From the NCBI RefSeq assembly GCF_003334785.1, contig NZ_QOWV01000023.1: DNA of 45,913 nucleotides, one strand, 5' to 3'. Origin of the DNA: Escherichia coli (GTDB lineage: Bacteria > Pseudomonadota > Gammaproteobacteria > Enterobacterales > Enterobacteriaceae). Position numbers and translations under genes: made by a program. Below the pieces are notes generated by a model. The model was not told the DNA's origin. It was given only the letters and a program-made list of their open reading frames with translations, and did not search any database. Positions 3,600-9,774 of the stretch are shown here, in pieces. How positions within the stretch are numbered: position 1 is the stretch's first letter; every line of letters starts with the position of its first letter.

Positions 3600-4109
3600 A
3601 TGAATCTACAACGATTTGATGACAGCACCCTAATCCGTATCTTTGCCCTTCATGAGTTACATCGACTGAAAGAACATGGCTTAACGCGCGGGGCGCTTCT
3701 CGATTATCACAGCCGCTATAAACTCGTCTTTCTGGCGCATTCTCAGTCGGAGTACCGCAAACTTGGCCCGTTCGTGGCTGATATTCACCAGTGGCAAAAT
3801 CTGGATGACTATTACAACCAGTACCGCCAACGCGTAGTTGTTTTGCTTTCTCACCCCGCCAACCCGCGCGATCACACCAATGTTTTGATGCACGTTCAGG
3901 GTTATTTTCGCCCGCATATTGATTCCACAGAACGCCAGCAGCTGGCTGCGCTTATCGACAGTTATCGCCGTGGCGAGCAACCACTTCTTGCGCCGCTGAT
4001 GCGTATCAAACACTATATGGCGCTTTATCCTGACGCCTGGCTTTCAGGGCAGCGTTATTTCGAACTTTGGCCGCGTGTGATTAACTTGCGCCATTCAGGA
4101 GTTTTATGA
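3600..4109 (+). CDS. ybgA: DUF1722-family protein, upstream partner of photolyase
   Basis: 169-aa ORF; stop overlaps phr start (ATGA at 4106-4109); recognised ybgA-phr arrangement. Confidence 0.9.
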   Translation: MNLQRFDDSTLIRIFALHELHRLKEHGLTRGALLDYHSRYKLVFLAHSQSEYRKLGPFVADIHQWQNLDDYYNQYRQRVVVLLSHPANPRDHTNVLMHVQGYFRPHIDSTERQQLAALIDSYRRGEQPLLAPLMRIKHYMALYPDAWLSGQRYFELWPRVINLRHSGVL

Positions 4110-5524
4110 CTACCCATCTGGTCTGGTTTCGCCAGGATTTACGTCTGCACGATAATCTCGCACTGGCTGCCGCCTGCCGCAATTCGTCTGCACGCGTGCT
4201 GGCGTTGTATATCGCTACACCACGCCAGTGGGCGACGCATAACATGTCGCCGCGTCAGGCTGAACTTATCAATGCTCAACTGAATGGGCTACAAATAGCG
4301 CTTGCGGAAAAAGGTATTCCTTTATTGTTCCGTGAAGTGGATGACTTTGTCGCCAGTGTCGAAATAGTTAAACAGGTGTGCGCGGAAAACAGCGTTACCC
4401 ACCTGTTTTATAACTATCAGTATGAAGTGAATGAGCGGGCGCGGGATGTGGAAGTTGAAAGAGCGCTGCGTAACGTGGTGTGTGAAGGATTTGATGACAG
4501 CGTGATCCTGCCGCCTGGCGCGGTGATGACCGGTAATCACGAGATGTACAAAGTCTTTACGCCTTTTAAGAATGCCTGGCTGAAACGGCTGCGGGAAGGG
4601 ATGCCGGAGTGCGTCGCTGCGCCAAAAGTTCGTAGTAGCGGATCGATAGAGCCCTCGCCATCCATTACGCTGAATTATCCTCGTCAGTCTTTCGATACTG
4701 CGCATTTTCCGGTGGAAGAAAAAGCGGCGATTGCGCAATTACGCCAGTTTTGCCAGAACGGTGCCGGAGAATATGAGCAACAACGAGATTTTCCGGCAGT
4801 GGAAGGCACCAGCCGTTTGTCGGCCAGCCTGGCAACGGGCGGGTTATCGCCTCGCCAGTGCTTGCATCGCTTGTTGGCTGAACAGCCGCAGGCGCTGGAC
4901 GGTGGGGCCGGTAGTGTCTGGCTTAATGAGCTGATCTGGCGCGAGTTTTACCGTCACCTGATAACGTATCACCCCTCGTTGTGTAAACATCGTCCATTTA
5001 TTGCCTGGACGGATCGTGTACAGTGGCAGAGCAATCCCGCACATTTACAGGCCTGGCAGGAAGGCAAAACGGGATACCCGATTGTTGATGCCGCTATGCG
5101 TCAGCTTAACAGCACTGGCTGGATGCATAACAGGCTACGGATGATTACAGCCAGTTTTCTGGTGAAAGATTTATTGATCGACTGGCGCGAAGGCGAGCGA
5201 TATTTCATGTCGCAGCTGATTGATGGTGATTTGGCAGCCAATAACGGTGGCTGGCAGTGGGCCGCTTCAACCGGAACCGATGCAGCGCCGTATTTTCGTA
5301 TTTTCAACCCGACAACCCAGGGCGAGAAATTTGATCATGAGGGCGAGTTTATCCGCCAGTGGCTACCGGAACTGCGCGATGTGCCAGGGAAAGTGGTGCA
5401 TGAGCCGTGGAAGTGGGCGCAGAAAGCAGGTGTGACGCTGGATTATCCGCAACCGATAGTCGAGCACAAAGAAGCGAGAGTACAAACGTTGGCAGCGTAT
5501 GAGGCGGCGCGGAAGGGGAAATAA
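4106..5524 (+). CDS. phr: Deoxyribodipyrimidine photolyase (CPD photolyase)
   Basis: 472-aa ORF recognised as photolyase/cryptochrome family (e.g. ...WREFYRHL..., ...GWMHNRLRMITASFLVKDL...). Confidence 0.95.
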   Translation: MTTHLVWFRQDLRLHDNLALAAACRNSSARVLALYIATPRQWATHNMSPRQAELINAQLNGLQIALAEKGIPLLFREVDDFVASVEIVKQVCAENSVTHLFYNYQYEVNERARDVEVERALRNVVCEGFDDSVILPPGAVMTGNHEMYKVFTPFKNAWLKRLREGMPECVAAPKVRSSGSIEPSPSITLNYPRQSFDTAHFPVEEKAAIAQLRQFCQNGAGEYEQQRDFPAVEGTSRLSASLATGGLSPRQCLHRLLAEQPQALDGGAGSVWLNELIWREFYRHLITYHPSLCKHRPFIAWTDRVQWQSNPAHLQAWQEGKTGYPIVDAAMRQLNSTGWMHNRLRMITASFLVKDLLIDWREGERYFMSQLIDGDLAANNGGWQWAASTGTDAAPYFRIFNPTTQGEKFDHEGEFIRQWLPELRDVPGKVVHEPWKWAQKAGVTLDYPQPIVEHKEARVQTLAAYEAARKGK

Positions 5525-5551
5525 CAGACGCGTCAGGCAATCGAGCCCAGA

Positions 5552-5660
5552 TGCCGGATGCGGCGTGAACGCCTTATCCAGCCTACAAATTTGTGCAAAT
5601 TCAATAAATTGCAGGAAATACGTAGGCCTGATAAGACGCGTCAAGCGTCGCATCAGGCAT
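5552..5660. repeat. REP/BIME repetitive extragenic palindromes between convergent phr and dtpD
   Basis: GCCGGATGCGGCGTGAACGCCTTATCCAGCCTACA and GTAGGCCTGATAAGACGCGTCAAGCGTCGCATCAGGCA are canonical E. coli REP units. Confidence 0.75.
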
Positions 5661-5673
5661 CGGTGCTGGCCTA

Positions 5674-7155: not shown

Positions 7156-7425
7156 AATAATTCCACAATTGACGGCAACGTCACGTAATAGTTGCGCGGC
7201 GTGCTTGTGTTTCCTTAAAGTTAAAACTTTGATACAGATCTGATTATTTATGCAATATGCTGTCTGATTGCATAAATATACATTAGCTGAAGCGTGATGA
7301 TATAAACAATTTGCGTCTTTTGGCGTCGGGTTTGTTTCTTAATATGTCAAAAGATTGGCTATCGACGAACTGGCGAGGTAACGCTATGTTAACGGTGTAG
7401 CTATCAGAATACGGAAGGCGCGAAG

Positions 7426-8169
7426 ATGAAAAACACCGAACTGGAACAACTGATTAACGAAAAACTGAACAGCGCGGCGATTAGTGATTACGCGCCGAAT
7501 GGTTTGCAGGTGGAAGGCAAAGAGACGGTGCAAAAAATTGTTACCGGTGTCACCGCCAGCCAGGCTTTGCTCGATGAGGCAGTGCGTCTGGGCGCGGATG
7601 CGGTCATTGTGCATCATGGCTACTTCTGGAAAGGAGAGTCTCCGGTCATTCGCGGAATGAAGCGTAACCGTTTAAAAACGTTGCTGGCGAATGATATCAA
7701 CCTGTATGGCTGGCATTTGCCGCTTGACGCACATCCTGAGCTGGGCAATAACGCACAGCTGGCGGCGTTACTGGGGATCACGGTCATGGGCGAAATTGAG
7801 CCGTTGGTGCCGTGGGGCGAACTGACCATGCCTGTGCCGGGACTGGAGCTGGCTTCCTGGATTGAAGCGCGTCTGGGACGTAAGCCGTTATGGTGTGGCG
7901 ATACCGGACCTGAGGTGGTCCAGCGCGTCGCCTGGTGCACGGGCGGCGGGCAAAGTTTTATCGATAGCGCCGCGCGTTTTGGCGTGGATGCTTTTATTAC
8001 TGGCGAAGTTTCTGAACAGACCATTCATTCAGCCCGCGAGCAGGGATTGCATTTTTATGCTGCAGGTCACCATGCCACTGAACGTGGTGGTATTCGCGCA
8101 TTGAGCGAGTGGCTGAATGAAAATACCGATCTTGATGTGACCTTTATTGATATTCCTAATCCTGCATAA
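7426..8169 (+). CDS. ybgI: NIF3-family metal-binding protein (GTP cyclohydrolase 1 type 2 homolog)
   Basis: 247-aa ORF recognised as Nif3/YbgI family. Confidence 0.9.
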   Translation: MKNTELEQLINEKLNSAAISDYAPNGLQVEGKETVQKIVTGVTASQALLDEAVRLGADAVIVHHGYFWKGESPVIRGMKRNRLKTLLANDINLYGWHLPLDAHPELGNNAQLAALLGITVMGEIEPLVPWGELTMPVPGLELASWIEARLGRKPLWCGDTGPEVVQRVAWCTGGGQSFIDSAARFGVDAFITGEVSEQTIHSAREQGLHFYAAGHHATERGGIRALSEWLNENTDLDVTFIDIPNPA

Positions 8170-8191
8170 CGAATAATCAGAGGGATCGAAA

Positions 8192-8848
8192 GTGCAACGA
8201 GCGCGTTGTTATCTGATAGGTGAAACGGCGGTAGTGCTGGAACTGGAACCGCCGGTGACGCTGGCTAGCCAGAAACGGATCTGGCGACTGGCGCAGCGTC
8301 TGGTGGATATGCCGAATGTGGTTGAAGCCATTCCCGGCATGAACAATATCACGGTGATTTTGCGTAATCCTGAGTCGCTGGCGCTGGATGCCATAGAGCG
8401 TTTGCAACGCTGGTGGGAGGAGAGCGAGGCGCTGGAGCCGGAGTCTCGCTTTATTGAAATTCCGGTGGTTTACGGTGGTGCAGGCGGACCGGATTTGGCG
8501 GTGGTCGCGGCGCATTGCGGGTTGAGCGAAAAACAGGTTGTTGAATTGCACTCCTCCGTGGAATACGTGGTCTGGTTTTTAGGTTTTCAACCGGGCTTCC
8601 CGTATCTCGGGAGTTTGCCGGAACAACTACACACGCCACGGCGCGCTGAACCGCGCTTACTCGTTCCGGCAGGTTCTGTCGGGATCGGCGGGCCGCAGAC
8701 TGGTGTTTATCCGCTGGCAACGCCGGGTGGCTGGCAGTTGATTGGTCATACCTCACTCAGCCTGTTTGATCCGGCGCGTGACGAACCCATCTTATTACGT
8801 CCGGGAGACAGCGTGCGCTTTGTACCGCAGAAGGAGGGAGTATGCTGA
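8192..8848 (+). CDS. pxpB: 5-oxoprolinase subunit B (allophanate hydrolase subunit 1-like)
   Basis: 218-aa ORF with GTG start; overlaps next gene; formerly ybgJ. Confidence 0.88.
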
Positions 8849-9774
8849 AGATTATTCGTGCGGGCATGTATACCACTGTGCAGGATGGCGGTCGTCACGG
8901 TTTTCGCCAGTCGGGTATCAGCCACTGCGGCGCACTGGATATGCCCGCGTTACGCATTGCTAACCTACTGGTGGGTAATGACGCCAATGCCCCCGCGCTG
9001 GAGATCACGCTCGGTCAGTTAACTGTTGAGTTCGAAACTGATGGGTGGTTTGCTCTGACGGGTGCCGGTTGCGAAGCGCGGCTGGATGATAATGCCGTCT
9101 GGACCGGCTGGCGATTGCCGATGAAAGCAGGCCAGCGTTTAACGCTTAAACGCCCGCAGCACGGGATGCGCAGTTATCTGGCGGTCGCGGGTGGTATTGA
9201 TGTTCCGCCGGTAATGGGCTCATGCAGCACCGATCTCAAAGTGGGGATTGGCGGGCTGGAAGGCCGTTTACTGAAGGATGGTGACCGACTCCCGATTGGC
9301 AAATCGAAGCGTGATTCTATGGAAGCGCAGGGCGTTAAACAGCTGCTGTGGGGCAACCGCATTCGCGCCTTGCCGGGGCCGGAATATCATGAGTTCGATC
9401 GCGCCTCGCAGGATGCATTCTGGCGTTCGCCCTGGCAGCTTAGCTCGCAAAGTAACCGCATGGGCTATCGCTTACAGGGGCAAATTTTAAAACGCACCAC
9501 CGATCGCGAACTGTTATCTCACGGTTTGTTACCGGGCGTGGTGCAGGTGCCACATAACGGGCAGCCGATTGTGTTGATGAACGACGCACAGACCACCGGT
9601 GGTTACCCGCGTATTGCCTGTATCATTGAGGCTGATATGTACCATCTGGCGCAAATTCCGCTCGGTCAGCCGATTCATTTTGTCCAGTGTTCACTGGAAG
9701 AGGCACTAAAAGCACGGCAAGATCAGCAACGTTATTTTGAACAATTAGCGTGGCGGCTGCACAATGAAAATTGA
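8842..9774 (+). CDS. pxpC: 5-oxoprolinase subunit C (allophanate hydrolase subunit 2-like)
   Basis: 310-aa ORF, overlaps both neighbours by a few nt; formerly ybgK. Confidence 0.88.

Follow-up and report, generated by a model that had tools for sequence, protein, structure and literature searches.

The closest described relative of the system considered here is RudS, a fusion of the [4Fe-4S] desulfidase TudS to the domain DUF1722, which strips 4-thiouridine (s4U) from tRNA and lessens the growth delay induced by ultraviolet A (UVA) light (Jamontas et al., NAR 2024; PMC11417400). According to the same study, 74% of DUF1722 domains are fused to TudS, the DUF1722 part of RudS contacts the anticodon arm of tRNA (on the basis of docking and mutagenesis), and rudS genes lie frequently within light-responsive operons together with photolyase. 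The E. coli chromosome is described there as having no TudS or RudS homologue and as encoding a stand-alone DUF1722 protein, YbgA, whose overexpression had no significant effect on s4U levels or thiouracil use (PMC11417400). In Shewanella, an RpoE2-dependent operon that includes phrB begins with ybgA (PMC4336711); in E. coli, early stationary phase induces ybgA together with phrB (PMC2241611), and RegulonDB holds a sigma-38 promoter, ybgAp1 (bioRxiv 10.1101/2020.02.05.936344). Here we analyzed ybgA and the photolyase gene phr, whose stop and start codons overlap as ATGA, in a stretch of 45,913 nt of Escherichia coli DNA (contig NZ_QOWV01000023.1 of assembly GCF_003334785.1), referred to as the window throughout. 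A preliminary description of this DNA had treated DUF1722 as a domain with no assigned function, which is out of date now that it is the tRNA-binding domain of RudS (PMC11417400).

Our analysis indicates that the ybgA-phr pair is very probably the Escherichia version of an old rudS-phr operon, from which the TudS domain was deleted and in which a stop codon was later lost, and that the stop-start overlaps of the window are ordinary. YbgA (169 aa) consists of the single Pfam domain DUF1722 (PF08349; E=4.4e-35, model positions 1-117 of 117), and its AlphaFold2 (AF2) model is all-helical with a predicted local distance difference test score (pLDDT) of 94. No profile match to the TudS domain (DUF523; PF04463) was found in YbgA, and searches by tblastn returned no TudS-like sequence within the ybgA gene of any Escherichia locus or in the DNA upstream of it. 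Since YbgA is without the TudS domain and its overexpression leaves s4U unlowered, it cannot be a desulfidase, and the gene is, on its sequence, best annotated as a TudS-less derivative of rudS. Some databases label the protein as "photoreactivation-associated"; a literature search under the name "orf169" found nothing.

A homologue search across 5.8 billion proteins showed that the close homologues of YbgA form a series, running from intact TudS plus DUF1722 through forms with a decayed N-terminal half to stand-alone proteins of 157-189 aa. A scan of one genome per species yielded 80 Enterobacterales loci (81 counting the window), and a photolyase gene lay directly downstream of the DUF1722 gene on the same strand in every one of the 80. 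With the window counted, 61 of the 81 loci carry full-length rudS (317-319 aa), 18 carry stand-alone DUF1722 (Escherichia, the Citrobacter freundii complex, Trabulsiella, and Klebsiella spallanzanii with its relatives), and 2 carry a disrupted DUF1722 gene. Alignment of the 5' ends revealed an ATG and an AGGAG motif common to E. coli ybgA, the 184-aa Citrobacter forms and full-length rudS. The 184-aa Citrobacter proteins start with MSxRIPVGIxxC, which is the N-terminus of TudS, and then go straight to FDExTL, and Escherichia ybgA has the same 3' deletion junction with ~15 further codons gone. The shared ATG and AGGAG, together with the shared upstream motif CTACACTTA described below, therefore point to removal of TudS by an in-frame internal deletion. 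In the Escherichia lineage this deletion is directly visible in the alignment, the putative promoter, ribosome-binding site, start codon and DUF1722 all having been kept. Other forms break elsewhere, between M-C and ENF in Trabulsiella and between MSE and SWLEDD in Klebsiella and Enterobacter JUb54, and these differing breakpoints point to at least three deletion paths (Escherichia and the Citrobacter freundii complex; Trabulsiella; Klebsiella and Enterobacter JUb54). Additional cases of loss of the catalytic domain are provided by Yersinia and several of the forms with a decayed N-terminus.

The ATGA overlap has a much narrower distribution than the gene pair itself: all 7 Escherichia loci have it and none of the 74 others does; in these the spacer between the DUF1722 gene and phr was mostly 3-48 nt, reached 163 nt at most, and had modes of +12 and +10 (for example, +20 nt in Citrobacter werkmanii L025 and +8 nt in L016). 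The ancestral junction in these relatives reads ...CGC TAC GGx CAT TAA ttCAGGAGnnTT ATG ACC, with the CAGGAG of phr, its Shine-Dalgarno sequence, situated in the intergenic spacer. All 7 Escherichia sequences are without the ~10 nt that held the codons for Tyr-Gly-His and the stop, and the junction alignment displays a ~10-nt deletion that removed the ancestral stop codon and created the ATGA overlap. Since this loss the ybgA open reading frame (ORF) reads through the Shine-Dalgarno sequence of phr to the TGA embedded in ATG-ACx, the first stop available. As judged from the aligned junctions, the overlap is a young by-product and no conserved device; as the result of a recent stop-codon loss, it is therefore not readable as selection for stoichiometry. 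RNA folding of the ybgA/phr junction gave no structure beyond shuffled controls (z = 0.30), and no coupling-enforcing hairpin was found there. The new overlap may only tighten, or may leave unchanged, a linkage that the ancestral spacer of 10-24 nt had partly allowed.

The 5' side of the gene is older. In Enterobacteriaceae the motif CTACACTTA, a sigma-S-type -10-like sequence ~27 nt upstream of the ybgA ATG, is conserved with unchanged spacing before both full-length rudS and stand-alone ybgA. It resembles a sigma-S -10 element and fits the RegulonDB promoter ybgAp1. A scan for promoters and terminators over 3300-5750 detected no terminator-like site and, as the sole promoter-like site, a weak one within phr, so that none separates ybgA from phr. 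Upstream of ybgA are RhsC/H-repeat genes in the window and kdpA-kdpF-ybfA in relatives, and neither in the window nor in the relatives was a MerR or extracytoplasmic function (ECF) sigma gene, as a light- or singlet-oxygen-responsive regulator, present beside ybgA.

These observations suggest a model in which an ancestral Enterobacterales operon, rudS-phr(-ybgI...), would have been driven by a conserved sigma-S-type promoter. Its RudS would have joined the TudS desulfidase to a DUF1722 binder of the tRNA anticodon arm and taken near-UV-sensitive 4-thiouridine out of tRNA. Because RudS clears this near-UV-sensitive nucleoside, its co-expression with photolyase would stem from a common response to light and to the stress of stationary phase and not from a protein complex; DNA repair and the handling of photosensitive tRNA would be two arms of one stress response. 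By analogy with RudS, the orphan YbgA may keep a catalysis-free tRNA-binding role.

In order to evaluate selection on the orphan domain, dN/dS (the ratio of nonsynonymous to synonymous substitution rates) was calculated by the pairwise Nei-Gojobori method on DUF1722 codons. The value among Escherichia species was 0.135, versus 0.10 for phr in the same genomes; it was 0.078 for the stand-alone Citrobacter forms and ~0.05 for the fused domain. Aligned stand-alone and fused proteins, down to a level of 31% identity, share 24 invariant columns, among them the HTNVLMHVQGYF core, and of 5,426 complete E. coli genomes 5,423 carry ybgA. The low dN/dS, the invariant columns and the status of a core gene therefore indicate that YbgA is under selection, although somewhat relaxed.

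Sequence variation within the gene was also evident. Codon 89 of K-12 YbgA (window 3864-3866) specifies Pro, whereas Arg occupies this position in at least 90% of family members and in most other E. coli; the context is ANPRDHTN in K-12 versus ANRRDHTN, with the residue just ahead of the invariant HTN motif. A difference between the window and K-12 MG1655 at 3747 changes Pro50 of YbgA to Ser in the conserved AHSQP turn. The ybgA region (window 3555-4125) is unusually divergent, with 1,407 E. coli genomes being 90-95% identical to K-12 (for example, CFT073 at 93.5%), which may reflect recombination near the Rhs insertion site.

Several points weigh against the reading of ybgA-phr as a TudS-less rudS-phr operon with a selected tRNA-binding domain and linked translation. 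The good Shine-Dalgarno sequence of phr and the unstructured junction make independent initiation of phr possible. The loop around position 89 of YbgA may correspond to the loop proposed to contact the tRNA anticodon, and it is there that K-12 has Pro. In neighbor-joining trees all the TudS-less forms fall together on long branches near the root, a placement that would fit either common descent or faster evolution after domain loss and that gives no clean count of independent losses. Finally, the repeated retention of DUF1722 exactly upstream of phr could mean a tie to photolyase closer than membership of the same regulon.

A first alternative has YbgA as an accessory factor or stoichiometric partner of photolyase, with ATGA enforcing equimolar synthesis. 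Such a partnership would agree with the invariable position of the DUF1722 gene directly upstream of phr in the Enterobacterales loci, with the purifying selection that has kept DUF1722, always beside phr, in several lineages that lost TudS, and with the 4.5-fold enrichment of overlapping pairs for subunits of complexes (PMC10666635). We nevertheless consider it unlikely, given that the overlap is confined to Escherichia and came from stop-codon loss, that 70% of E. coli pairs at -8..+10 nt form no complex, and that the partner in most relatives is a 318-aa enzyme with a substrate of its own, tRNA (PMC11417400). In addition, a linker-fused AF2 model of YbgA and photolyase, built from 19 paired rows, had a predicted template modeling score (pTM) of 0.65 and a disordered linker (pLDDT <50); read from pTM and pLDDT alone, this is approximately what two independent domains would give, a weak negative with no confident interface and no sign of a fixed one. 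E. coli photolyase has also been purified and is active as a monomer, which counts against such a partner. The association of ybgA with phr that the preliminary description reported is thus real and old, whereas its suggestion that the tight overlap marks a stoichiometric partner finds no backing in an Escherichia-only junction or in a fused model without a confident arrangement.

The co-occurrence of DUF1722 with phr, which that description had proposed to check, divides along the same line: adjacency is universal in the 80 Enterobacterales loci, but the overlap is absent outside Escherichia and the pairing itself is often absent further afield. Among rudS loci sampled from a plasmid collection (9 PLSDB records, including large secondary replicons), 6 of 9 have no photolyase within 5 kb, which also tells against a photolyase partner; these are three IncF-type plasmid backbones, Thermus (where rudS lies beside carotenoid genes), Nonomuraea and Persicobacter. 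Photolyase does accompany rudS in Aeromonas, Pseudoalteromonas and Photobacterium, phrB coming next either directly or after a MerR gene. Most distant stand-alone DUF1722 genes from metagenomes were on contigs too short to use, and two were contig-edge truncations of full rudS; of the four that were informative, two had a MerR regulator gene after them and none had phr immediately downstream. These variable contexts outside Enterobacterales suggest that what links DUF1722 and phr is a light- or stress-response regulon and not an obligatory pairing.

It is highly unlikely, in our estimation, that YbgA is a functionless relic whose ORF survives because phr needs its promoter and the ribosomes translating through it. 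Loss of the catalytic domain, the absence of any overexpression effect on tRNA s4U or thiouracil use (PMC11417400), the R89P substitution of K-12 at a near-invariant Arg, to which the window adds P50S, and the existence of truncated variants in some strains are what a relic would lead one to expect. A mere translated leader, however, would not keep its amino-acid sequence, and the dN/dS across Escherichia is near that of phr; the invariant columns with the HTNVLMHVQGYF core, common to stand-alone and fused forms, and the near-universal presence of the gene in E. coli likewise speak for a functional protein. A split enzyme, in which YbgA would be the tRNA-binding half acting in trans with a catalytic partner (a plasmid RudS or TudS, or another tRNA-modifying enzyme), is very unlikely. 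A gene split was raised as a possibility by the authors of the RudS study (PMC11417400), and conjugative plasmids of the IncF type spread full rudS among E. coli, Shigella and Klebsiella (253 plasmid records), but the chromosome of E. coli holds no TudS or RudS homologue (PMC11417400), the TudS part was deleted and not moved elsewhere, and the plasmid genes are already complete fusions. We regard as rather unlikely, and put forward as speculation, an autonomous function of DUF1722 that is independent of TudS and tied to photolyase or near-UV damage; it is suggested because the domain, the start codon and the position before phr were kept under purifying selection after each loss of the catalytic domain. 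In one version, YbgA would be a catalysis-free tRNA binder that shields or senses tRNA containing s4U8 or crosslinked by UVA, or that recruits photolyase to damaged RNA.

The overlap finding as first stated adds nothing new, as such junctions and their coupling are textbook matter and the DUF1722-photolyase neighborhood was published with RudS in 2024. The value of the present analysis is corrective, in that the ybgA/phr ATGA is a by-product of stop-codon loss and no signal of stoichiometry. What it leaves as a puzzle worth an experiment is a tRNA-binding domain that has been shorn of its enzyme and is still conserved before phr in nearly all complete E. coli genomes.

We also examined the stop-start overlaps across the whole window (Table 1). 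Every overlap listed in the preliminary description was found where it had been placed, together with several close junctions that were not listed there. The impression of a notable run did not survive comparison with the genome: 9 of the 35 same-strand neighbor pairs in the window (26%) are at -8..+6 nt, versus 707 of 2,987 pairs (24%) across E. coli, where -4 and -1 are the modal classes (PMC10666635), so that the share is close to the genome average. Overlapping pairs number 10 of the 35, and 5 of these 10 encode subunits of one complex (Sdh, Suc, Pxp). Genome-wide, 30.4% of E. coli pairs at -8..+10 nt code for subunits of one complex (PMC10666635); with only ~30% of such pairs being complex subunits, a -4 overlap is weak evidence for a stoichiometric partnership. 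The claim that the overlaps indicate translational coupling stands in a general form only. Having terminated on the upstream stop codon, a ribosome can start again from the start codon that overlaps it, usually aided by a Shine-Dalgarno sequence inside the upstream gene, and strict coupling was found for 4 of the 5 E. coli -4 pairs put to the test (PMC6728339); at ybgA/phr itself such coupling is a possibility alongside independent initiation. Shine-Dalgarno-like motifs within the upstream gene also occur at pxpB/C, sdhC/D, sucC/D and ybgC/tolQ. The overlaps of the window are ordinary, the normal compact junctions of E. coli operons.

Table 1. Coordinates in the window of the ybgA-phr locus, its neighbors and the close gene junctions (distances in nt, negative values denoting overlap).
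Feature	Position	Strand	Description	Basis
CTACACTTA	3565..3573	+	sigma-S-type -10-like motif of ybgA	conservation; putative function
Shine-Dalgarno of ybgA	3590..3594	+	AGGAG, 5-nt spacer to ATG	aligns with Citrobacter homologues and rudS
ybgA	3600..4109	+	stand-alone DUF1722 protein, 169 aa	Pfam PF08349; ATG = ancestral rudS ATG
Shine-Dalgarno of phr	4097..4101	+	AGGAG, 4 nt before phr ATG, within last ybgA codons	sequence
phr (phrB)	4106..5524	+	deoxyribodipyrimidine photolyase	RefSeq annotation; intact ORF
dtpD	5674..7155	-	opposite-strand gene between phr and ybgI	RefSeq annotation
ybgI	7426..8169	+	NIF3 family, annotated "radiation resistance protein"	RefSeq annotation
pxpB-pxpC-pxpA	8192..10498	+	5-oxoprolinase subunits	RefSeq annotation
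ybgA (3600-4109)/phr (4106-5524)	4106..4109	+	-4, ATGA	mapped annotation
pxpB (8192-8848)/pxpC (8842-9774)	8842..8848	+	-7	mapped annotation
pxpC/pxpA (9764-10498)	9764..9774	+	-11	mapped annotation
nei/abrB	11322..11325		convergent 4-nt overlap; not in the preliminary description	
ybgO/ybgP	13578..13581	-	-4; not in the preliminary description	mapped annotation
ybgV/ybgU			-17; not in the preliminary description	
sdhC/sdhD	20159..20165	+	-7	mapped annotation
sdhD/sdhA	20506	+	-1	mapped annotation
sucC/sucD	28870	+	-1, TAATG	mapped annotation
cydX/ybgE	38999	+	-1, TGATG	mapped annotation
ybgC/tolQ	39843..39846	+	-4, GTGA	mapped annotation
tolQ/tolR			+3; not in the preliminary description	

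Aligned over its whole length, the window shares 99.9% identity with E. coli K-12 MG1655 (NC_000913.3, ~735.4-780.5 kb). Each of the 5,426 complete E. coli genomes has a match to the region 3400-10600, which in K-12 strains is essentially the same. The RefSeq annotation of NC_000913.3 was transferred onto window coordinates with an offset of -777 nt up to sucB and of -686 nt beyond, the change being due to 91 additional bases of repetitive extragenic palindromic (REP) sequence that the window has between sucB and sucC. All genes mapped from ybfL (1499) rightwards are intact, with a start codon, a stop codon and an unbroken frame, and ybfC and ybfQ at the left edge gave no clean mapping. Differences from MG1655 comprise a 91-nt tandem duplication of a REP unit (27339-27703, in the sucB-sucC spacer) and 11 point differences (3199, 3203, 3747, 10987, 17022, 17515, 21609, 30638, 32230, 39587 and 45175).

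RhsC-associated H-repeat genes (ybfO, ybfC, ybfL, ybfD; window 1-3452) sit between ybfA and ybgA, with the Rhs insertion point ~45 nt upstream of the -10-like motif of ybgA. H-repeat genes are present at this site in K-12, Escherichia sp. E1V33 and E. whittamii and absent in E. coli E69, SCPM-O-B-8794 and Citrobacter, where the ybfA terminator adjoins the ybgA promoter. Insertion of this element as the cause of the ybgA truncation was rejected, as Escherichia loci without it carry the same 169-aa gene.

Downstream of phr, ybgI follows on the same strand in 77 of the 81 loci and is within 100 nt or overlapping in 34, with an overlap of ~-7 nt in Pectobacterium, Brenneria and Samsonia. The gene dtpD lies between phr and ybgI in 29 loci, Escherichia included, and is absent in 49 of the 81, which do have ybgI; the 34 loci with ybgI close to phr or overlapping it are among these 49. 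The common closeness of ybgI to phr suggests that the ancestral cluster looks like rudS-phr-ybgI(-pxpBCA-nei), a neighborhood related to damage through photolyase, the "radiation resistance" NIF3 protein and endonuclease VIII. On plasmids, complete rudS was found in 253 records, 172 of them conjugative and most of them IncF plasmids of Klebsiella, E. coli and Shigella, so that E. coli strains can regain the enzyme lost from the chromosome. The plasmid RudS (TudS plus DUF1722) is 50-53% identical to YbgA in its DUF1722 part, and its gene contexts (L082, L083, L090) are MerR-uraH-rudS-AAA ATPase or DUF3833-rudS, with no photolyase. Among the other loci, an enterobacterial-like contig (L099; Logan SRR30213258) carries seqA-pgm-rudS-phr-ybgI with rudS split into TudS and DUF1722 ORFs and phr fragmented, and looks like part of a decaying, possibly host-restricted genome that is shedding the whole module. 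A locus labeled Chryseobacterium sp. 18061 (L030) has an enterobacterial rudS-phr pair near-identical to that of Citrobacter sp. 18056 from the same study and is probably contamination or mislabeling.

The locus can finally be set against the known systems that it resembles. Termination-reinitiation (TeRe) pairs (Huber et al. 2019; PMC6728339, PMC10666635) are, like the pairs of the window, co-directional, at -4 (ATGA or GTGA) or -1 (TAATG or TGATG), with a Shine-Dalgarno sequence inside the upstream gene, and several window pairs are complex subunits (Sdh, Suc, Pxp); the window pairs differ from them in no basic way, although the ybgA/phr overlap is evolutionarily young. Photolyase operons that respond to light or singlet oxygen through LitR/MerR or RpoE-ChrR (Pseudomonas, Aeromonas, Vibrionaceae, Shewanella, Pseudoalteromonas) share with E. 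coli a DUF1722-containing gene accompanied by phrB. These operons also carry MerR/LitR or ECF sigma/ChrR genes plus genes for cfa, SDR, FAD-oxidoreductase and DUF1365, none of which is at the E. coli locus; E. coli has instead a putative sigma-S-type -10 promoter and, downstream, ybgI-pxpBCA-nei. RudS (PMC11417400) differs from YbgA in its TudS/DUF523 domain, whose three Cys ligands of the [4Fe-4S] cluster are all missing in YbgA. The two proteins are alike over the whole DUF1722 domain, with YbgA being 55-67% identical to enterobacterial RudS, and their genes occupy the same slot upstream of phr, with promoter-like motif, ribosome-binding site and start codon in common.

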